Assembly (NCBI GenBank): GCA_016187335.1
Contig: JACPJW010000001.1
Coordinates: 96,001-160,000, forward strand
Direction of reading: 5' to 3'
From: Candidatus Aenigmatarchaeota archaeon
Lineage (GTDB): Archaea; Aenigmatarchaeota; Aenigmatarchaeia; GW2011-AR5
Length of the DNA stretch: 64,000 nucleotides
In this document: piece by piece, positions 3,437 to 60,730 of the stretch
Layout of the letters: each line of letters opens with the position of its first letter
Numbering within the stretch: the first letter of the stretch is position 1
Program-made: the position numbers and the translations under genes
Notes under the pieces: model-generated
What the model was told of the DNA's origin: nothing
Databases searched by the model: none
Seen by the model: only the letters and a program-made list of their open reading frames with translations

Positions 3437-3497
3437 CTTTGACCAGACTTTTTGGTCAGATTTTTTTTTGATCAAACTTTTTTTCCAAAAAAGTTTG
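3437..3497. repeat. Family-1 palindromic repeat (CAAACTTTT..AAAAGTTTGATCAAAA on the minus strand) plus a variant CTTTGACC..GGTCAGA
   Basis: Same module as at 8177, 8264, 8325, 8355, 17654 and 59824-59976. Confidence 0.85.
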
Positions 3498-23753: not shown

Positions 23754-24347
23754 ATGAAACTAAGATTGCTAGCCGAAGAAATAACAAAAGCAGAGACTAT
23801 TGAATACTTAGCTGAAGGTGTAAGAAGAGTCGTTCCTGTTCATTTAGATTTTTCGGTAATCGGTGAAAGATATTCTAAAGGTAATGTATGGATGTGCAAT
23901 TTACATCATATAGGTATTAAATTCGTGCCTCCAAATTTAGACGAATACCTGTTAATTCTAACGCATTCACCATTTTCTTACAGGAGGAAAGATATCTCCG
24001 ATCGATTTGAATGGATTGGGAACGCCCACGAAATTAGCTATGCTGGATTATGTGATAATGAAAGTAGAATTCTCATCGTTGGCGGAGACAATTCTCCGAG
24101 TAATGGTAATGTTAAGGTTGCTAGCCATGAAATAGCTCATGCAGTTTTAGGTTATCCCGTAACTTGGGATTTTGAATCTATTCATTGTAAAAATTTTATT
24201 GGTAGCAAAAGATGTGTAATGAATACCGTACAGGAAGTAGGTCAGGGAGTAGGTAGAGACCTCGAAGAATTGTACTTAGGGTTTTGTCAGCCATGCACCG
24301 ATGCAATGAAAGAAGTTGAAAAAAATAAATTCACTCCAAAATCCTGA
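23754..24347 (+). CDS. Archaemetzincin-like Zn metalloprotease
   Basis: HEIAHAVLG...HC....CVM...FCQPC. Confidence 0.65.
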   Translation: MKLRLLAEEITKAETIEYLAEGVRRVVPVHLDFSVIGERYSKGNVWMCNLHHIGIKFVPPNLDEYLLILTHSPFSYRRKDISDRFEWIGNAHEISYAGLCDNESRILIVGGDNSPSNGNVKVASHEIAHAVLGYPVTWDFESIHCKNFIGSKRCVMNTVQEVGQGVGRDLEELYLGFCQPCTDAMKEVEKNKFTPKS

Positions 24348-24365
24348 CGTCATCCACGACGCCGT
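24331..24365 (-). repeat. Orphan copy of the 3' end of the 26317-27237 gene
   Basis: 31 bp (24335-24365) identical to 26321-26351; continues GAG TGA versus GAA TAG, so both copies encode ...GVVDDVRILE*. Confidence 0.92.
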
Positions 24366-24370
24366 GATTT

Positions 24371-25045
24371 TTACATCTGCAATTTCTCTATTCTCAAAAT
24401 CAGATTCGGGTCAGGGCACAATTTCAGGTATTTTTCTCTTTGCTCTATGCTGGCAACGCCGGGGAAATCTCCCTTCATTCCATGCATGTCCGCGATTACC
24501 TGGAAATGAAGGTGCTCGAACCACTGGCCGTTAACACTAAAATTGCCTATCTCCCCGATAGCTTCGCCCATTTGGATTTCCTGCCCTTCTTTTCTGCCTT
24601 CCAGAGACTCCTCGCTTAGATGTCCGTAAAGCGTGTAAAATACCGTGCCGCCAAGCTCATGCTGCAGGATTATTGTAGGACCGTAATCGCCGTGTCCTCT
24701 GTTATTGTGGAAGCTGTGAACAGCAGCGTCAAGCGGCGAGAATATTTTTGTTCCGGCAGGCAGGATCACGTCGATTCCAAGATGAATTGTCCTTTCGGCA
24801 AAAAGGCTGCTGTGCCTGTAAATTGTCCTGTCCTCGTTGTATCTGCCAATGCCAACTGCCGCATTGTTTAGCCGCAAGGTTTCTTTCACGCATCTGTCAA
24901 ATTCTTCGGCAGATCTTATGTCTATTTTCCGCAGCTCCTCATTGTCTTCAGTGAAATCGAAAACAAATATTTTCTCTTTGTTTAGGTCAAAAGAAATTAC
25001 TCTGCCTATTCTGTCTTTATTTCTTCTCAGAATTTCTTCCAGCAT
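24371..25045 (-). CDS. M23 family metallopeptidase
   Basis: HLGID (HxxxD), YGH and EHLHFQ (HxH) motifs. Confidence 0.85.
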   Translation of the reverse strand: MLEEILRRNKDRIGRVISFDLNKEKIFVFDFTEDNEELRKIDIRSAEEFDRCVKETLRLNNAAVGIGRYNEDRTIYRHSSLFAERTIHLGIDVILPAGTKIFSPLDAAVHSFHNNRGHGDYGPTIILQHELGGTVFYTLYGHLSEESLEGRKEGQEIQMGEAIGEIGNFSVNGQWFEHLHFQVIADMHGMKGDFPGVASIEQREKYLKLCPDPNLILRIEKLQM

Positions 25046-25049
25046 TTTC

Positions 25050-26045
25050 TCACCTCGGTAGAAACCAGACGTTAAGGTCTTCGTAAGGCCCTTCCACTTC
25101 TACGTCCCTGTCAGCGTCTATCCTGCAGTGCCTGTTCAGCCTTCCTGCGTATCGAAAGCCAAGGTTCGCTGACTGCTGGTTGACGCCGCGCGAACAAGCC
25201 CTGTCCTCTTCGAAAATAAGGTGAATGTCATTGCCGTATCTTCCAAGAAGCTCGTTTACAAGCGTGGCAACGCATGCCTGGTTCAGTCCGTTGCTCCTGT
25301 GACTAGGATCCGTAGCCTCGTCGCTGAGCTCGCTTATTCTCAGCAACCCTCTGCTTGTTTCGATCTCTGCTATTTCTGCTATTGCAACGGAAACAATGCT
25401 CCCGGAACCATGTCTTGCTAAAGCTACTATAGAAGTGGGTGTTTCGACCAATTCTGCTACATTTTCTTCAGTGAGAGGAAAAACGTAGTCTCTGTAAACT
25501 GCCTGGTAAAGCCTGAAAAGTTGCCTTATGTCCCCGTCACTTCTTATTCCAAGCTCTGTTACGTAGCCTCTTTCGGAAGCCTTTGAAAACGGGTCTCTTG
25601 AAGTAGCTGTTCTTAGCGATTCAAAAACTATTTCATCCTCTTTCAATACCGCATTTCCCTGTTCGATTCTTCGGGCGGAGTTTTCTCCGAAATATTGAAC
25701 CCCGTATCCTTGCCATTCTCCGCTTAAAGGAATGTATTCCGTCTCAAATCCCCGGCTGTAAAAATTTCCCAGCGGAGAAAAGCAATTTGGTTTTCTTATT
25801 CCAGACGATGCCAAGCATGTTCGTTCTGCTAATGGATATCTTGTTACGAATCTGAGCGTTATTCTGGATGCATATCTCCAATCTCTTACGATTCTTGCTT
25901 GTTCTATGAACGGCATAGCTCCATCAGAATGTTCAAGAACAGTTGTGCAGAATCCTTTCACCCTGTCGTTATGCCTGTCAAAAACAGGCTCTCCTATTCT
26001 ACCTATTGAACTGGCGCTTTGATATTCACCCTGCATTGTTATCAA
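25050..26045 (-). CDS. GNAT acetyltransferase resembling beta-lysine N-acetyltransferase (AblB-like)
   Basis: ELSDEATDPSHRSNGL (acetyl-CoA motif), RA.S.GVN..S.NLGFRYAGRL..HC.I, EDLNVW. Confidence 0.7.
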   Translation of the reverse strand: MITMQGEYQSASSIGRIGEPVFDRHNDRVKGFCTTVLEHSDGAMPFIEQARIVRDWRYASRITLRFVTRYPLAERTCLASSGIRKPNCFSPLGNFYSRGFETEYIPLSGEWQGYGVQYFGENSARRIEQGNAVLKEDEIVFESLRTATSRDPFSKASERGYVTELGIRSDGDIRQLFRLYQAVYRDYVFPLTEENVAELVETPTSIVALARHGSGSIVSVAIAEIAEIETSRGLLRISELSDEATDPSHRSNGLNQACVATLVNELLGRYGNDIHLIFEEDRACSRGVNQQSANLGFRYAGRLNRHCRIDADRDVEVEGPYEDLNVWFLPR

Positions 26046-26256
26046 CTCGGCTATTAACTACAGCGTAAAGCAGTTTTCTTCTTCTGTCAGAAAACGAGAA
26101 TGATTCCGCAATTGCTTTCCGCCTTCTGAGCACGGAAATATTGTACCTTAGAGTTCTCTCTGGAACTCTGATTGATTCGCGCAACTGGCGGATATTCATA
26201 GGTCTAGAAGAAAGAGCTTGTAGAATTCTTCTCTGCAGGACGCTTTTCACGTTCAC
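26026..26256 (-). CDS. Winged HTH DNA-binding protein
   Basis: RILQAL...MNIRQL...IRVPERTLRYNISVL. Confidence 0.7.
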   Translation of the reverse strand: MNVKSVLQRRILQALSSRPMNIRQLRESIRVPERTLRYNISVLRRRKAIAESFSFSDRRRKLLYAVVNSRVDNNAG

Positions 26257-26316
26257 CCATCGGAATCACTTGCACTTCATGTACGTGCACACTTTTATTC
26301 CTTTTCATAGCGGCAA

Positions 26317-27237
26317 CTATTCCAAAATCCTGACGTCATCCACGACGCCGTCGTAATCGCTGTCCAAGCCAAGGACAACGTGCGCGTTCTTTTTCTGTAT
26401 TTCATCGAAGCGCTTGAGAAGAGCAAGCACGGCCGCGCGCGTTCCTGAAAACCTTTTCCCGGCTATGAGCAGCAGCTTGCTTTTCCGGTTGAAAGGGTTG
26501 TCCGCCTTGACGATGATGCCGCACTCGTCGCTCCTATAAGTTTTTTTCGTGAGCGATGAGTAGATGTTCTTTTTTGCGTCGAACCGGACGGGCAGCTTGT
26601 CATTGACCGCCCTGGTTATCCTGTTTATGACGGGCCCGCCGATTATTATCAGGTTTTCTTTTACCTCATGCAATTCCGTGTCAAGAACAACAGAAGGCTC
26701 GCTTTTGTTAAGGAACGTTCCCAGAAACAGCGCAAGGTCTATGGCATAGGAAGCATCGCGTGAGCGGGCGCGCTCAGGGCCGTGAGGGTCAGGCGAGCCC
26801 ACGACGATCTTCGCATTGAAAACGCCTTCAGCAATGAAGGGTTCAAGGAATTTGTTGGCTGTTTTAGGAATTTTCTCCGTCTTCTCAAAGTCGCGGAATT
26901 TCAGGAAGAAAGAAGGCTTTGTCAAAACATAAATTTTTGCCAATGTTCCTCCTCTTTCCTCTTTCCTCAGGACCCTTATGATTCCTTGCTTCTCTAGGTT
27001 ATGTACATGGTAGTAAACCTTCTGCTCGTGCATGCGCAGTTGCGCAGCCATTTCCTTGGGGTACGAAGGTTTTTTCGCGAGGGAATGCAGGATCTTCATC
27101 GCCGTCTCAGAAAAATCGGCCTTGCCAAGCTCCGCCGAGGGCAGCGCCAGCACCCTGCCGTCTTTTTCTTCAACTACAAATGCCATTATAACCACAAGTC
27201 TCTTTTGATTGAACTTTGGAGCAGCAAAGTTCATCAC
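26317..27237 (-). CDS. ArsR-type HTH protein with a C-terminal S-layer-like domain (start may be ATG 27186)
   Basis: YPKEMA..L.MHEQKVYYH HTH; IVVGSPDPHG, NLIIIGGPVINRIT, AGKRFSGTRAA. Confidence 0.7.
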   Translation of the reverse strand: MMNFAAPKFNQKRLVVIMAFVVEEKDGRVLALPSAELGKADFSETAMKILHSLAKKPSYPKEMAAQLRMHEQKVYYHVHNLEKQGIIRVLRKEERGGTLAKIYVLTKPSFFLKFRDFEKTEKIPKTANKFLEPFIAEGVFNAKIVVGSPDPHGPERARSRDASYAIDLALFLGTFLNKSEPSVVLDTELHEVKENLIIIGGPVINRITRAVNDKLPVRFDAKKNIYSSLTKKTYRSDECGIIVKADNPFNRKSKLLLIAGKRFSGTRAAVLALLKRFDEIQKKNAHVVLGLDSDYDGVVDDVRILE

Positions 27238-48625: not shown

Positions 48626-50269
48626 ATGCATCCGTTTGCGCAGTTCCGCAAGGAATGCGAAGAGTTGTGCGGCGAAAACGCGCGGTTTCTGGAAGAGCCC
48701 AAGGAGCACGCAGACCTCGCCCTGCCTTGCTTCCGCCTGGGCAGGAACCCTGTTGAGATAGCGAAGCAACTGGAAAAAGACCTGCAAAGCAGGATAAAGA
48801 AGGACTCGCTTGTAAAGGATGTGGAAGCGTCAGGTCCATATATTAATTTTTTCATCGACAACAAGAAATTTTCTCATATTGTTATTCAGCAGGTTTTAAA
48901 TGAAAAAGAAAAATACGGCTCGCAGCCGCGCATGAAAGAAAAGATAATGATTGAGTACGCCCATCCAAACACGCACAAGGCCTTCCACGTCGGCCACGTG
49001 CGGAACATCTGCATCGGCGAGGCCCTGTGCAGGCTGCTCGAAAAAAGCGGTTATAAAGTGATCCGCGCAAATTACCAAGGAGATATCGGGCCTCACGTCG
49101 CGAAATGCTTATGGGGCCTGCAGAACCTGGGCATGTCGCAGGAAAAGAACAAGGGCCTTTTTCTCGGTGACGTTTACGCCGCGGCAAACGCGAGGATGGA
49201 GGGGAACCCCCAGCTGGAATCGGAGATCCAGAAGATTAGTAGCGCCCTTTACAGGAGGAGCGACAAAAAACTGCTCCAGTTATGGAAAAAGACAAGGAAG
49301 TGGTCGCTTGACTACTTCGGCTCGATATACAAGGATTTTGGCGCGAAGTTTGACCACCTTTATTTCGAGAGCGAGGTCTTCGAGGAAGGAATAAGGATGG
49401 CTCGCGAGCTGCTCGAGAAGGGTGTCGCGGAGATGAGCGAAGGCGCCATAATTGCCGATTTGAAAAAGCAGGGGCTCGGGGTGTGTGTGATATTGAAAAG
49501 CGATGATGATCCGCTTTACTCGACGAAGGATCTTGGCCTGGTGAAAAAGCAGTTCAGTGAGTACAAGCCCGATAAAATAATCCATGTCGTGGGCTCGGAG
49601 CAGCGGCTGTACTTCCAGCAGATGTTCAAGATATTCGGCTTCATCAACCCTGACTGGGAAAGTAAGAACTACCATCTTTCCTATGAGCTTGTCATGCTGC
49701 AGACGGGCAAGATATCTTCAAGGGCGGGCAGCGTCGTGACTTACGAGCACCTGATCGAGGAAGGGACTGAAAAAGCGGTGGAAGAAATAAAGGAACGAGG
49801 CATCTCGGAAGAAAAAGCCGCGAAGGACATTGCCCTCGCAGCGGTAAAGTATGCCATGCTGAAAAGGGACACTGATAGGACCATAACTTTTGACTGGTCC
49901 GAAGTGCTTAATTTCGAGGGCGACACCGGGCCTTATTTGCAGTACACTTACGCCCGCGCCTTATCCATTTTACGCAAGAGCAAAAGGAAGCCCAAAGCCG
50001 CTCCGCTTTTTACTGAACTAGAGTTCGACCTTGCAAAGAAGCTTGCCATGTTTCCTGAAATCATTGAAAAGTCAGCAAGGGATTTGAAGCCGAACTATGT
50101 TGCAAATTATCTTTATGACCTGGCGACGCTGTTCAACAAATTCTATCATGAAACCCGTGTTGTCGGCACTAAGGAAGAAGAGACTCGCCTAGCGCTGGTT
50201 GCCGCAACGGCGCATGTTCTTAAAAACGGCATGGAAATACTAGGGATAAAAGCATTAGAGAAAATGTAA
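48626..50269 (+). CDS. argS: Arginine-tRNA ligase
   Basis: HVGH (HIGH), KISSR (KMSKS), FEGDTGPYLQYTYAR. Confidence 0.96.
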   Translation: MHPFAQFRKECEELCGENARFLEEPKEHADLALPCFRLGRNPVEIAKQLEKDLQSRIKKDSLVKDVEASGPYINFFIDNKKFSHIVIQQVLNEKEKYGSQPRMKEKIMIEYAHPNTHKAFHVGHVRNICIGEALCRLLEKSGYKVIRANYQGDIGPHVAKCLWGLQNLGMSQEKNKGLFLGDVYAAANARMEGNPQLESEIQKISSALYRRSDKKLLQLWKKTRKWSLDYFGSIYKDFGAKFDHLYFESEVFEEGIRMARELLEKGVAEMSEGAIIADLKKQGLGVCVILKSDDDPLYSTKDLGLVKKQFSEYKPDKIIHVVGSEQRLYFQQMFKIFGFINPDWESKNYHLSYELVMLQTGKISSRAGSVVTYEHLIEEGTEKAVEEIKERGISEEKAAKDIALAAVKYAMLKRDTDRTITFDWSEVLNFEGDTGPYLQYTYARALSILRKSKRKPKAAPLFTELEFDLAKKLAMFPEIIEKSARDLKPNYVANYLYDLATLFNKFYHETRVVGTKEEETRLALVAATAHVLKNGMEILGIKALEKM

Positions 50270-50306
50270 TATGGTCTAGAAAGAATTTCAAAGAAATTCT
50301 TGGTAG
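50268..50306. repeat. 39-nt family-2 hairpin, covarying partner of 8391-8429
   Basis: AATATGGTCTAGAAAGAATTTCAAAGAAATTCTTGGTAG. Confidence 0.85.
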
Positions 50307-50332
50307 GCATCAAGGCATTGGAGAAGATGTAG
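50306..50332 (+). repeat. Synonymously recoded orphan copy of the argS 3' end
   Basis: GGC ATC AAG GCA TTG GAG AAG ATG TAG versus GGG ATA AAA GCA TTA GAG AAA ATG TAA (50243-50269); both read GIKALEKM*. Confidence 0.88.
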
Positions 50333-57297: not shown

Positions 57298-57999
57298 CTA
57301 CGCTGTTTTCTCGATTGCATCTGCCAGTTCATCACGAAGGGGGAAAATTCCATGTGAAAGATTTTCTGTCATTTCATCGATGAAGGGTGTTCGTCTTTCC
57401 TCTTGGCGTGCAATGATTTCATCTAGATGCCTTGTCGCCTCCTTGTCGCCAGCCATCTCCCTTCTTATTAAATCTTCTGCAAAATCACCTGTATATTCAG
57501 CGCCACAAATGTAAACGTCATATGCTTCGAGACTTTCTTCGATTTCGCCGAGCCTTAGCCTGACGTGAACAAGCCCGGCTCTGTCAGTTAAAATCGTCTC
57601 GGGCAATCTTCTGTTTTCAAGCCAATGGCGGGGGAAGCGTCTCCATGCTGGATTTCCAAGTCTTCTTATTGAATAAGAGGAGCAAGCCATTCCAGCCAGT
57701 TCATATCTCTGGTAAAGATGCCAGCTGGAATAAAAAACTTCGGTTGCTCTCCCCCATATCGCCGCTATATCCAGCGGACCCAAGCTGAAATCTCCTATGT
57801 CCTCAATCGCATCAGCAAGGAACCCGTAACTTCTTCTGACAAAAGAATATAATTCGTTGTTATGCTTAATTTTCAAAGACTTATCATTGAGCTGCTGGAT
57901 TATCGGCAGATGAGCGTCAATAACAGAAATCACCGGGTGCTGTCCGTACGCCCCCTCCCTTCGCGCTGCCTGCTCTATAAGCTCTCTCGTAAGTTCCAT
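57298..57999 (-). CDS. Hypothetical protein (ORFan)
   Basis: 233-aa ORF; no motif recognised. Confidence 0.6.
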   Translation of the reverse strand: MELTRELIEQAARREGAYGQHPVISVIDAHLPIIQQLNDKSLKIKHNNELYSFVRRSYGFLADAIEDIGDFSLGPLDIAAIWGRATEVFYSSWHLYQRYELAGMACSSYSIRRLGNPAWRRFPRHWLENRRLPETILTDRAGLVHVRLRLGEIEESLEAYDVYICGAEYTGDFAEDLIRREMAGDKEATRHLDEIIARQEERRTPFIDEMTENLSHGIFPLRDELADAIEKTA

Positions 58000-58029
58000 A
58001 GCAATCTGAAATCTCTGAAGGATTTAAAT

Positions 58030-58521
58030 TCAGAACCTGTATTCCTCCAACTTGTATATCTTTGATACGATGACTTCCTTCCAGTCGCCTATCAGGCCGC
58101 CGAATTTCTCGCGGAACTCCAGCTTCATGGTTTCGAACTCGCGCGCATCTTTGGCAAGAAAAACTATGTACAAATCATAATCGCCGAGCATGGCCATGAG
58201 GTCGATGACCCTCGGATTCTTTTTCATCGCGTCGATCAGCGCCTCGTACTTCTCCTTGTCTATGTCCTTCAGCTTGATGTAGACATGCACGGCGAAGCCG
58301 ATGCCTATTTTGCCCGGATCCGGCTCTATCGTATATCGCCTTATCACCCCGATGCGCTCAAGCTTTGCTATGCGCTTCTTCGTGGAATCAACGGAAAGAC
58401 CTATGTCACCGGCGATTTTTGTCAGTTTTGAGCGTGCATTTTCGCCTAAAATGTTCAGGATGCGCCTGTCTTTCTCGTCCAGGTGCCTTATTTTCTCCGA
58501 TTCCTCTTCATTTTTGACCAT
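58030..58521 (-). CDS. Lrp/AsnC transcriptional regulator
   Basis: LDEKDRRIL..L.ENAR...IA..IGLS..ST..RI.KLE..GVI; C-terminal RAM domain LGDYDL. Confidence 0.92.
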   Translation of the reverse strand: MVKNEEESEKIRHLDEKDRRILNILGENARSKLTKIAGDIGLSVDSTKKRIAKLERIGVIRRYTIEPDPGKIGIGFAVHVYIKLKDIDKEKYEALIDAMKKNPRVIDLMAMLGDYDLYIVFLAKDAREFETMKLEFREKFGGLIGDWKEVIVSKIYKLEEYRF

Positions 58522-58548
58522 ATTTATCTTATAAATTAAGATAAATAT
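58520..58548. promoter_or_regulatory. Perfect 12-bp inverted repeat at the Lrp start, candidate operator
   Basis: ATATTTATCTTA-TAAAT-TAAGATAAATAT in a divergent promoter region. Confidence 0.5.
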
Positions 58549-58617
58549 TTAAAGAAATTCCTATTTTTTAAGACATTTTTCGTTAAAAGGCTTAATACTT
58601 TCACATACTACTATATA

Positions 58618-58821
58618 GTGGTGATAATAATGATATTTGGTTTCATGGAAAGCGCTCCCCTGAAAGAGGTCAGGCAGAGCAGGCTTAATCCTCCTGCTGT
58701 TTTCAGGAAAAAGAATGAGGATTGTTCGGGCTGCGTTGACGTTTTTGATTTCAGCCTGAACGGAAGCGGGGCTGTCTTCAGGACAGTAACCTGCGGGTAC
58801 CACGGTGAGGGATTAAAGTGA
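58618..58821 (+). CDS. Small hypothetical protein with CxxC and CxxH (ORFan)
   Basis: CSGC...CGYH; overlaps the next ORF. Confidence 0.4.
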   Translation: MVIIMIFGFMESAPLKEVRQSRLNPPAVFRKKNEDCSGCVDVFDFSLNGSGAVFRTVTCGYHGEGLK

Positions 58822-59087
58822 TGTTCTTCCTTGGTTATGCAGTTGGAATTAACGGGCAACCGCAAGAACCATTATTCAAAGGCCGATTAGCAGAGTCGTT
58901 GGTCAGAGGGGCATTGATTGGGCTCAGGCGGGGTCTGGAACAGGGTCATGAACCATCGGAAATTGAAAGTTATCTTGTCTTCGAAAAAGAAAACGGAGAA
59001 AGATTTTACAAGGTATTGTTCCAATCAGAAGTCCAACCAAAGAATCCCGGGTACAAAAGTAGAGACCATTGCGGGTACGGGTTATAG
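58818..59087 (+). CDS. Hypothetical protein (ORFan)
   Basis: 89 aa, overlapping both neighbours. Confidence 0.4.
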   Translation: MMFFLGYAVGINGQPQEPLFKGRLAESLVRGALIGLRRGLEQGHEPSEIESYLVFEKENGERFYKVLFQSEVQPKNPGYKSRDHCGYGL

Positions 59088-59488
59088 TCATGACAGAATA
59101 TTTCTCACAGTCCAAAAGCGTCAGGGAAACAGCTGGCAGGTTAGGTATCTCGTCGTACGAAGAAGCGGCAGCTGGATTAAACGGGGCACAAAGGCGTCTG
59201 CGCGAAATAGATAGTGAAATCAACAGGCTTCAGCGTCTCAAATCCGCAGCGATAGGCCAAGTTCGGGATTACCATTTCTGCTCGCGCCTGCGTGATTACA
59301 GGGAAGCTGTAATAAGAGAGCTTGATGGAAAGGACCCGAGGCAAATGGACGAGCAGGAACGTGCTGCGTTGCAAAACTCTGTGAAGATTCGCGCTTACGA
59401 ACATGGCTTCGACGTCTTCGGCATGGAACAGCGAAGAATGCGGGAAAAGCTCGCGAGCAGGTTGAGCGTGACGGACAAGAGGAAATAA
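59069..59488 (+). CDS. Hypothetical coiled-coil protein (ORFan)
   Basis: HTH-like start (VRETAGRLGIS) followed by a coiled coil. Confidence 0.5.
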   Translation: MRVRVIVMTEYFSQSKSVRETAGRLGISSYEEAAAGLNGAQRRLREIDSEINRLQRLKSAAIGQVRDYHFCSRLRDYREAVIRELDGKDPRQMDEQERAALQNSVKIRAYEHGFDVFGMEQRRMREKLASRLSVTDKRK

Positions 59489-59608: not shown

Positions 59609-59821
59609 ATGCGCAGGCAGGCAAAGAAAATAGAAATAAAAAACGCCATGAAATGCGGGCGCTGCGAGCTTTCATTCAAGAGCATGCTCGCGCTGAAGAG
59701 GCACAGCCACGTGCATCTGGACGACATGCAGGAACTGAGGCTGCTGCAGGAAGGCCACAAGCCCGTGGAAACGAAGTTCGGCGGGATTTTCAAGGGGAAA
59801 AATAAGGTTATAATAAGTTAA
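59609..59821 (+). CDS. C2H2 zinc-finger protein
   Basis: KCGRCELSFKSMLALKRHSHVH. Confidence 0.75.
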   Translation: MRRQAKKIEIKNAMKCGRCELSFKSMLALKRHSHVHLDDMQELRLLQEGHKPVETKFGGIFKGKNKVIIS

Positions 59822-59976
59822 TTCTTTGATTAAACTTTCTTTCTAAGAAAGTTTACAAGAACAGGGTTATTATAAGCTAATTCTTTTGGTGCAACTTTTC
59901 CTAAAAGTTGCTTTGATTAAACTTTGGATTTACTGGCCACAAGTCTCTTTTGGTGCAACTTTGGAGAAGCAAATTG
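59822..59976. repeat. Family-1 palindrome cluster containing a recoded orphan copy of the C2H2 gene 3' end (59857-59880)
   Basis: Modules at 59824-59856, 59883-59910, 59911-59927 and 59947-59976. AAG AAC AGG GTT ATT ATA AGC TAA versus AAA AAT AAG GTT ATA ATA AGT TAA. Confidence 0.85.
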
Positions 59977-59977
59977 C

Positions 59978-60730
59978 TTAGTGACCGCCGTATTTGAATA
60001 ATGCAGTCATGTATATTTTTTCTAATTTAGGTATCTCTTCTCTGGGAAGACGTAACTCCAATGCTTCAAGCGTTCTGCTCATTGACCTGTATCTTACTGT
60101 ATCCCTTATGAAAGGCTTGAATCCTTCTTTGCCGTCATGAGGGCTGACATAATATCTGTTTACAAGATCGCCGAATGCAAGCGCCTCCCGATAAGGCGTT
60201 GTCGTCTCTATTTCTCTTCTTCCATTACCATCTTCATTAAGCCAGCCGCCGTATTCTGCGTATGTCTCCATGAAAAGCGTTGCTAGTGGTTGCGGAACAT
60301 CAGCGCTTTTCAAAAGTCTTCTGGACCTGACATGCCTAGTTTCGTGGTCCGTGACTCTTTGAGGGCGTAAGTGAGAAGGTAAACGTCTATTGAAACCCAT
60401 CACAGGAACTTTCACAGCATCTCTAATTGGGTCGTACTGGAAGCCTGTGACGCCTGGCGGACCGTTTTCATATACTACAACGGGTACTCTACTGTTTTCA
60501 GGTTTATCACCCACGCCAAGGTCATCTTCTTGGTTTATCTTCCTGAAAGACCTTTCTACGCTTGATCTAACATCATAAGGCAAACCGCTTGTATCCAGAG
60601 AAGGCATAAGGAGTCCGCGCAGCATTCCTCTTAATCTGAATCCGGGCATCATGAGCGTAAGTTCGTCCACTAATTCCTGCACGCTTGTCCCGCCCCTGTA
60701 GTCCGAAATGCTTCCTCTCATCCAAATCAC
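59978..60730 (-). CDS. Hypothetical protein with an HExxH zincin motif (ORFan)
   Basis: DHETRH with a downstream ETYAE. Confidence 0.55.
   Translation of the reverse strand: MIWMRGSISDYRGGTSVQELVDELTLMMPGFRLRGMLRGLLMPSLDTSGLPYDVRSSVERSFRKINQEDDLGVGDKPENSRVPVVVYENGPPGVTGFQYDPIRDAVKVPVMGFNRRLPSHLRPQRVTDHETRHVRSRRLLKSADVPQPLATLFMETYAEYGGWLNEDGNGRREIETTTPYREALAFGDLVNRYYVSPHDGKEGFKPFIRDTVRYRSMSRTLEALELRLPREEIPKLEKIYMTALFKYGGH

Follow-up and report, generated by a model that had tools for sequence, protein, structure and literature searches.

Our analysis indicated that the end of a small C2H2 zinc-finger gene is present twice in an archaeal chromosome, on either side of a short hairpin element, and that the locus has somewhat better than an even chance of being a recombination scar, in which two diverged alleles of a unit made of a gene end and a hairpin were joined, with one illegitimate junction at the base of the hairpin. 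The gene lies in the window, by which we mean the whole 64,000-nt stretch that was analyzed (positions 96,001 to 160,000 of contig JACPJW010000001.1, here C2), within a genome (G000) of 1.01 Mb in two contigs that is 91% complete. The runs holding the locus sequence are groundwater metagenomes. Positions below refer to the window unless preceded by C2, and the locus is laid out as follows.

59609–59821, + strand: C2H2 zinc-finger gene (protein P0001, 70 amino acids), with a CX2CX12HX3H finger and a conserved C-terminal tail, as read from the translation
59798–59821, + strand: in-frame tail (tail 1), KNKVIIS followed by TAA, with A/T-ending codons
59822–59856, − strand: hairpin element A, abutting the in-frame stop codon
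59857–59880, + strand: stranded tail (tail 2), KNRVIIS followed by TAA, out of the gene's frame (spacing 59)
59881–59911, − strand: hairpin element B, abutting the stop codon of tail 2 in the register that A has to tail 1
59911–59927, − strand: truncated hairpin element A′, with an exact 15-mer in common with element A
59937–59977, − strand: hairpin element B′ of family 2, with an exact 17-mer in common with B
59978–60730, − strand: gene X (250 amino acids), convergent with the C2H2 gene

The duplication of the C2H2 gene end across a palindrome, first claimed in an earlier note on this DNA, was confirmed both by reading the sequence and by a repeat search, which returned a direct repeat of 30 nt (59798–59827 and 59857–59886) with 25 of 30 positions identical at a spacing of 59. 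Codon by codon, tails 1 and 2 read AAA and AAG (K), AAT and AAC (N), AAG and AGG (K and R), GTT in both (V), ATA and ATT (I), ATA in both (I), AGT and AGC (S), and TAA in both; the four synonymous changes and one K/R change that had been counted are thus four silent third-position changes and one second-position change (AAG/AGG), with the stop codon retained. Tail 2 begins at 59857, one base beyond the paired part of hairpin A (last arm, 59845–59855). Each tail is indeed followed by TTCTTT and a hairpin of its own, but two details needed amendment: TTCTTT was assigned to the hairpin elements because the same prefix is found on the copies of the sister species, so that the truly duplicated gene sequence is 24 nt long, and element B ends at 59911 rather than 59910. 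The description of the tail as recoded stands if it means divergence under coding constraint in another lineage, and falls if it means active recoding.

Read on the − strand, element A has a stem of 11 bp and a loop of 3 nt ahead of AATCAAAGAA, its arms being placed at 59831–59841 and 59845–59855 by an inverted-repeat search, and element B consists of a 9-bp stem (GCAACTTTT/AAAAGTTGC) followed by ACCAAAAGAA, with arms read from the sequence at 59891–59899 and 59903–59911. Element B′, which begins directly after the stop codon of gene X, has a GGAGAAGC-type loop and a long tail ending in ...AAAAGAGACTTGTGG on the − strand. All four elements are oriented as gene X is; seen from the C2H2 side, both tails are abutted by an ATCAAAA-type element end, the stop codon being followed by TTCTTT. 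The exact 15-mer (59824–59838 and 59911–59925) and the exact 17-mer (59882–59898 and 59946–59962) give an A-B-A′-B′ pattern, are common to neighbors from two hairpin families, and include the rare GGTGCAAC variant; the pattern suggests that the array has undergone gene conversion or duplication on a local scale. The hairpins probably serve the two convergent genes as 3′-end structures or as structures resembling terminators. A reading of the hairpin as a BRE/TATA-type promoter (AAAGTTTNATCAAAA) was dropped, given that many copies start at the stop codon of a gene running the same way and that the elements also form arrays.

The paired tails stood out clearly against chance expectation. None of five Markov-simulated 918-kb contigs, matched in size and dinucleotide make-up, contained a pair of 30-mers with at least 25 of 30 identical positions at a spacing of 30–300, and the real contig held 14 bins with such pairs, mostly hairpin arrays. 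In the real genome, only 28 loci reached 24/30 for 30-mers within 300 nt, most of them arrays of hairpins or repeats within genes. Followed by a stop, the tail's peptide motif [KR]N[KR][IVL]3[STA] occurred just twice in the six reading frames of the whole genome, both times at the C2H2 locus, and exactly once per locus, within ~1.5 kb, in ~27 orthologous loci. Judged by these loci, the second tail is specific to the lineage of this genome.

The protein itself carries the signature CGRCX12HSHVH, which is conserved among its orthologues, although the Pfam models zf-C2H2_11, zf-C2HE, and zf-C2H2_4 gave it only 15–19 bits, below their cut-offs of 27–30. A search of 61 related genomes turned up homologues of the gene in 49. 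Outside the finger, the best conserved stretch is the C-terminus, F[KR]GKN[KR][IV][IV][IV][ST]-stop, in which conservation among 25 distinct orthologues reaches 90% or more for F, G, K, and N, a pattern indicating that the tail is under strong selection. Compared with the orthologues, both tails match this conserved C-terminus far better than chance. The closest homologue, P0002 (83% identical), ends in KNKVIIS and is therefore identical in peptide to the in-frame tail. Its Q>H and R>K replacements, along with silent changes, were seen in run X1 as a 2.2x variant of ~89% identity over 59654–59785, so that this groundwater sample also contains a second, related lineage at low depth. The lineage of P0002 is a possible donor that co-occurs with the recipient in the sample. 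P0002 is encoded on an 11.5-kb contig of a Logan assembly, and a further homologue, P0003, on a 3.5-kb contig in an NCBI record. A scan of metagenome contigs for a closer relative returned none, a family-wide search gave at most 64% identity to P0003, and the genome G001 from the same genus (56% complete) lacks the C2H2 locus and has only the hairpin families in common.

In related genomes, the C2H2 gene and the homologue of gene X are convergent neighbors whose stop codons abut or overlap, whereas here they are separated by a gap of 156 nt that holds the hairpin elements and the spare tail. Because the loci of other genera have a single tail and abutting convergent genes, the 156-nt gap is derived, and because the relatives have the same convergent neighbors, the assembled gene order is ancestral. 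Upstream, three genes (a 233-residue protein of unknown type, an Lrp/AsnC regulator, and an unknown protein of 132 residues) lie at 57298–59488 between an RFC-like gene and the C2H2 gene; in the relatives, the RFC-like gene directly adjoins the C2H2 gene or is separated from it by a HicAB-like pair, and in view of the three extra genes, the region is dynamic. Gene X had no Pfam or NCBIfam match in a profile search.

Codon composition was considered as proof that tail 1 is foreign and was found to be weak. The GC content at third codon positions is 1/7 in tail 1 against 0.78 in the gene body, but the codon usage of the genome makes tail 2 only ~4.6 times more typical than tail 1, and the K/I-rich N-terminus of the gene itself also uses AAA and ATA. 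Codons for K, N, and I are AT-rich in any case.

The two halves of the locus were recovered separately from public data. Logan contigs from four runs in two studies reproduced the C2H2 gene, tail 1, and hairpin A with zero differences, and contigs from the same four runs reproduced hairpin A, tail 2, B, A′, B′, and gene X, again with zero differences; in runs X5 and X6, parts of the stretch had no contig cover, to which a depth of 5–6x allows no meaning to be attached. A single-tail form of the locus was absent from the Logan contigs. No public Logan contig bridges the 34-nt core of hairpin A, the contigs of the two halves breaking inside it, and this core is exactly repeated, in inverted orientation, at C2:510396. 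An assembly artefact in which the core was joined to the wrong flank, so that the tails would not be adjacent in cells, might draw on this break and on a contig of run X5 in which the C2H2 gene, tail 1, and hairpin A lead on to sequence similar to that flanking the 510-kb copy. However, a graph built with k = 31 must branch at an exact repeat of 34 nt, so that contigs can be expected to break or to take odd paths there; neither half shows a difference in two studies; and tail 2 is plainly the end of a C2H2 gene and adjoins the conserved convergent gene X, which makes the assembled order the parsimonious one. Even a different join would leave tail 2 as a stranded C2H2 end beside an A-type hairpin. 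We consider an artefact extremely improbable. The join between tail 1 and tail 2 is thus supported by synteny and not by an independent contig bridge. Neither of the outcomes named in the earlier note as refuting its reading applies, and that reading is supported: no chimera was shown, each half being exact in the contigs and the order of neighbors in the relatives being the same, and both tails match the orthologues. The low-coverage X5 contig may itself reflect a 355-kb inversion polymorphism or a graph artefact.

The hairpins belong to an abundant repeat family built from a variable closing pair, AACTTT, a loop, and AAAGTT, with ATCAAAA on one side. The genome contains 114 strict copies, of which 105 can be oriented (~105–114 per Mb), and tandem arrays of the elements with periods of 27–47 nt are common. 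An element starts directly at the stop codon of a gene running the same way in 20 of 51 copies, and intergenic copies are oriented as the upstream gene in only 51 of 81 cases (crude ORF calls). The orientable elements (e.g., at window positions 3463, 8189, 17655, and 27205) lie mostly on the − strand (79, with 26 on the + strand), compared with only 56% of genes on the − strand in crude gene calls. Hairpin A matches an inverted copy at C2:510395–510432 at 37 of 38 positions and appears to be young or to have undergone recent conversion. The arms of A and B differ from each other by changes that are paired and compensatory, and copies of both the A type and the B type are present in the sister species. 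The possibility that tail 1 and hairpin A had been copied together from the flank of the copy at C2:510396 was rejected (similarity 16 against 13.0 ± 2.3 for shuffled sequence, p = 0.14).

A purely local origin of the second tail would involve either a 59-nt tandem duplication by slippage or an insertion of hairpin A with a target duplication of 24–30 nt, after which the copies would have diverged in place while selection held the in-frame one. Slippage in the hairpin array is plausible at this site because exact 15- and 17-mers are common to A/A′ and B/B′; moreover, element arrays are frequent in the genome, the repeat-element-repeat geometry is that of a target duplication, and a near-identical copy of hairpin A elsewhere is to be expected after a recent insertion. 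However, a neutral copy should hold most of the differences, at random codon positions. In our simulations, the observed pattern of exclusively silent or conservative changes with a retained stop codon had a P value of 0.03 to 0.001 if three to five of the differences were neutral, and for a second locus, argS (see below), the P value was at most 0.008 for a neutral copy still reading as a correct tail. The statistics of the C2H2 locus are modest, given only five differences; nevertheless, as all differences are silent or conservative, neutral decay of a spare copy in place is unlikely.

The ages of the parts also disagree with a local origin, as a divergence of 21% between the tails does not fit an apparently young hairpin A. 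Taken together with the compensatory changes between the arms of A and B, the contrast between 37/38 identity in the hairpin and 21% divergence in the tails argues that the 59-nt units are not a fresh tandem duplicate. Our genome-wide scan for 30-mers with at least 24 of 30 identical positions within 300 nt revealed no other locus at which flanking non-element sequence was doubled around a single element, a result that speaks against target duplication of the transposon type. No RAYT/Y1 transposase scored over the cut-off in the genome (best PF01797 match, 16.7 bits against a cut-off of 23, in a sequence containing a stop), and target duplication would not be their mode of insertion anyway, since Y1/RAYT enzymes (IS200/IS605) make none. 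On balance, we regard a local event as fairly unlikely.

A scan in which the last eight residues of every gene were compared with the downstream frames revealed four stranded ends in the genome besides that of the C2H2 gene. The genome therefore carries at least five such scars, two of which have only a dispersed hairpin between the copies. The second hairpin-only case is argS (window 50243–50332, C2:146243–146332), in which the in-frame tail is followed by a small hairpin and then by a stranded end, GIKALEKM-stop, 36 nt after the stop codon; all six differences between the tails are silent, and the spacer is a hairpin from a different dispersed family from that at the C2H2 locus. A gene encoding a 306-residue HTH protein (window 24331–27237) has a silently differing stranded end behind 1950 nt of cargo. 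A 76-residue zinc-ribbon gene (C2:221300–224495) is followed by a 2922-nt, AT-rich block (36% GC) of three genes and then by ~18 stranded codons, with 11 of 14 differences between the tails at third codon positions; from the translations, rather than from profile hits, we labeled the three products as a HerA/FtsK-like ATPase, a membrane/zinc-ribbon protein, and a 316-residue protein. In this case, the whole in-frame gene is AT-rich like its cargo. Finally, behind a gene for a 219-residue protein (C2:31814–33330) lie an 818-nt insert, which contains a PIN-like ORF of 150 residues, and then a stranded end of ~40 codons. A further pair of ends, GMVGGC-stop at C2:891886–892866, was rejected as a scar, as it belongs to two real adjacent genes; these are tandem paralogues with a common C-terminal GMVGGC-stop and a hairpin element of the second family between them.

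argS and the three cargo-bearing ends share with the C2H2 locus an A/T-richer in-frame end, a hairpin or cargo, a G/C-richer stranded end, and silent differences; they differ from it in that the spacer hairpin of argS comes from the other family and the remaining three carry 0.8–2.9 kb of genes. Pooled over the five scars, positions with A/T in the in-frame copy and G/C in the stranded copy outnumber the reverse by 26 to 7 (p = 0.0013), and by 15 to 5 when the largest case is left out. This bias suggests incoming DNA as the source of the in-frame end.

The cargo-bearing cases bring to mind site-specific integration. The C2H2 locus could be the remnant of an integrative element (an attL-attR "micro-CIME") that brought its own copy of the gene end, integrated at the 3′ end of the C2H2 gene, and has since lost all of its cargo except the hairpin, along the lines of e14 in icd, for which a prophage-supplied 3′ end is a precedent (PMC6379469). 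As in an icd/e14-type insertion, the 3′ end of the gene is duplicated on both sides of the insert and the ORF is completed by the in-frame copy; three other genes have stranded ends behind 0.8 to 2.9 kb of cargo, and an exact 9-nt run common to both copies, TAATTCTTT, could have served as the core. However, 6 nt of this run, the longest identical one, are hairpin-element sequence. No recombinase was found in or beside the locus, where the neighboring genes have no Pfam or NCBIfam match; the sole PF00589 match in the genome lies ~580 kb away (C2:737809–738315), and reading of the translations, as opposed to a profile search, revealed no integrase-like ORF in the cargo. An integrative remnant is, in our judgment, quite improbable.

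A selected module, in which the tails and the hairpin work together, for example as a long shared 3′ stem-loop or with tail 2 as a spare end after loss of the hairpin, is a further candidate. The stranded copy is codon-perfect, TTATAATAA in tail 1 (59808–59816) and TTATTATAA in tail 2 (59867–59875) are exact reverse complements, and the tails pair around hairpin A on both strands, a single A/T difference making the 9-bp helix perfect. Furthermore, the 221-nt region folds better than shuffled sequences (z = −3.1 on the + strand and −5.0 on the − strand). The pairing, however, follows from the near-palindromic V-I-I codons and is probably a by-product, and none of the ~27 orthologous loci from other genera has a second tail. 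Splicing of an archaeal bulge-helix-bulge (BHB) intron into tail 2 was rejected, as the BHB motif is absent from the folds predicted for the two strands, which consist of a stem interrupted by symmetric internal loops. Read-through or frameshifting into tail 2 was likewise rejected: read-through meets a TAA three codons past the stop, and tail 2 lies in a frame that a TGA at 59827–59829 closes and that has no start codon. A search of Rfam found no known RNA family. We therefore hold a selected module to be very improbable; the stranded copy is most likely without a function of its own.

Joining of two diverged alleles by recombination, which we favor, would account for these observations as follows. 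Two alleles, each consisting of a C2H2 gene end with a hairpin directly behind the stop codon, would have diverged in separate lineages while both were coding. DNA from a related strain would then have entered the cell, uptake being the most likely route, and one crossover would have taken place within homologous sequence, with a second, illegitimate junction at the base of hairpin A (59856/59857). As a result, tail 1 and hairpin A (59 nt) would now end the gene, and the last 24 nt of the other allele would have been left behind untranslated. Such a mechanism, which we infer, would resemble homology-facilitated illegitimate recombination (HFIR). Which tail was resident is likewise a matter of inference; from the composition trend over the five scars, the in-frame copy would be the incoming one. 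A mirror scenario, in which tail 2, hairpin B, and gene X came in anchored on the gene X side, fits equally well.

It is also conceivable that in ultra-small archaea, and possibly in CPR bacteria as well, gene ends are replaced recurrently and that the hairpin repeats are themselves the active sites. Small units of gene end and hairpin that encode no protein, or larger cargo, would then be acquired from relatives and spliced in ahead of the resident end through DNA breaks or template switching at the base of the hairpin, with no dedicated recombinase. We consider such a role unlikely. If true, it would amount to a general route for the acquisition of alleles and gene cassettes, with stranded, silently differing tails as its signature.

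On its own, the C2H2 locus is best seen as a neutral scar without evident function. Collectively, the five scars, two of them hairpin-only, point to frequent gene-end replacement and hint that hairpin repeats mark the junctions; should the link with hairpins hold, a very abundant repeat family would be tied to gene exchange. The value of such stranded, silently differing gene ends is that they record the joining of DNA from diverged relatives into the chromosome of an uncultivated, host-dependent archaeon, and the scar is most likely a useful footprint of gene exchange rather than a new machine. To our knowledge, recombination and DNA uptake are essentially unstudied in such host-dependent archaea and have not been characterized in DPANN archaea.

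Among known repeats, the hairpins resemble REP/BIME and MITE-like sequences in being short, dispersed, oriented elements that sit between gene ends, form tandem arrays, and show compensatory changes in their arms; they differ in that this genome has no RAYT/Y1 transposase over the cut-off. We know of no REP insertion that duplicates or replaces 24 nt of coding sequence.

A close mechanistic parallel is HFIR, in which a homologous anchor combined with an illegitimate junction would place the incoming end first and leave a remainder of the resident end behind it. HFIR has been shown experimentally in naturally transformable bacteria (de Vries & Wackernagel 2002; Prudhomme et al. 2002; Meier & Wackernagel 2003, as cited in PMC6382021), whereas in the present DPANN archaeon it is a proposed mechanism. 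A close parallel in outcome is icd/e14 of Escherichia coli K-12 (also phage 21), in which the prophage supplies the icd 3′ end and leaves a 163-bp pseudo-icd (Hill et al. 1989, summarized in PMC6379469). In that system too, the insert provides a replacement 3′ end that keeps the gene intact, the original 3′ end is left downstream and untranslated, and the changes between the two ends are silent or conservative. The contrast lies in scale and machinery: e14 is a prophage of 15 kb that encodes an integrase and is associated with a duplicate of 163 bp, whereas the insert here is 59 nt long (a 24-nt tail and a 35-nt hairpin) and resides in an archaeon. The scar may thus be viewed as a cargo-less analogue of icd and pseudo-icd around e14, and what is new relative to known footprints is that it is hairpin-only, lacks a recombinase, and occurs in an archaeon.
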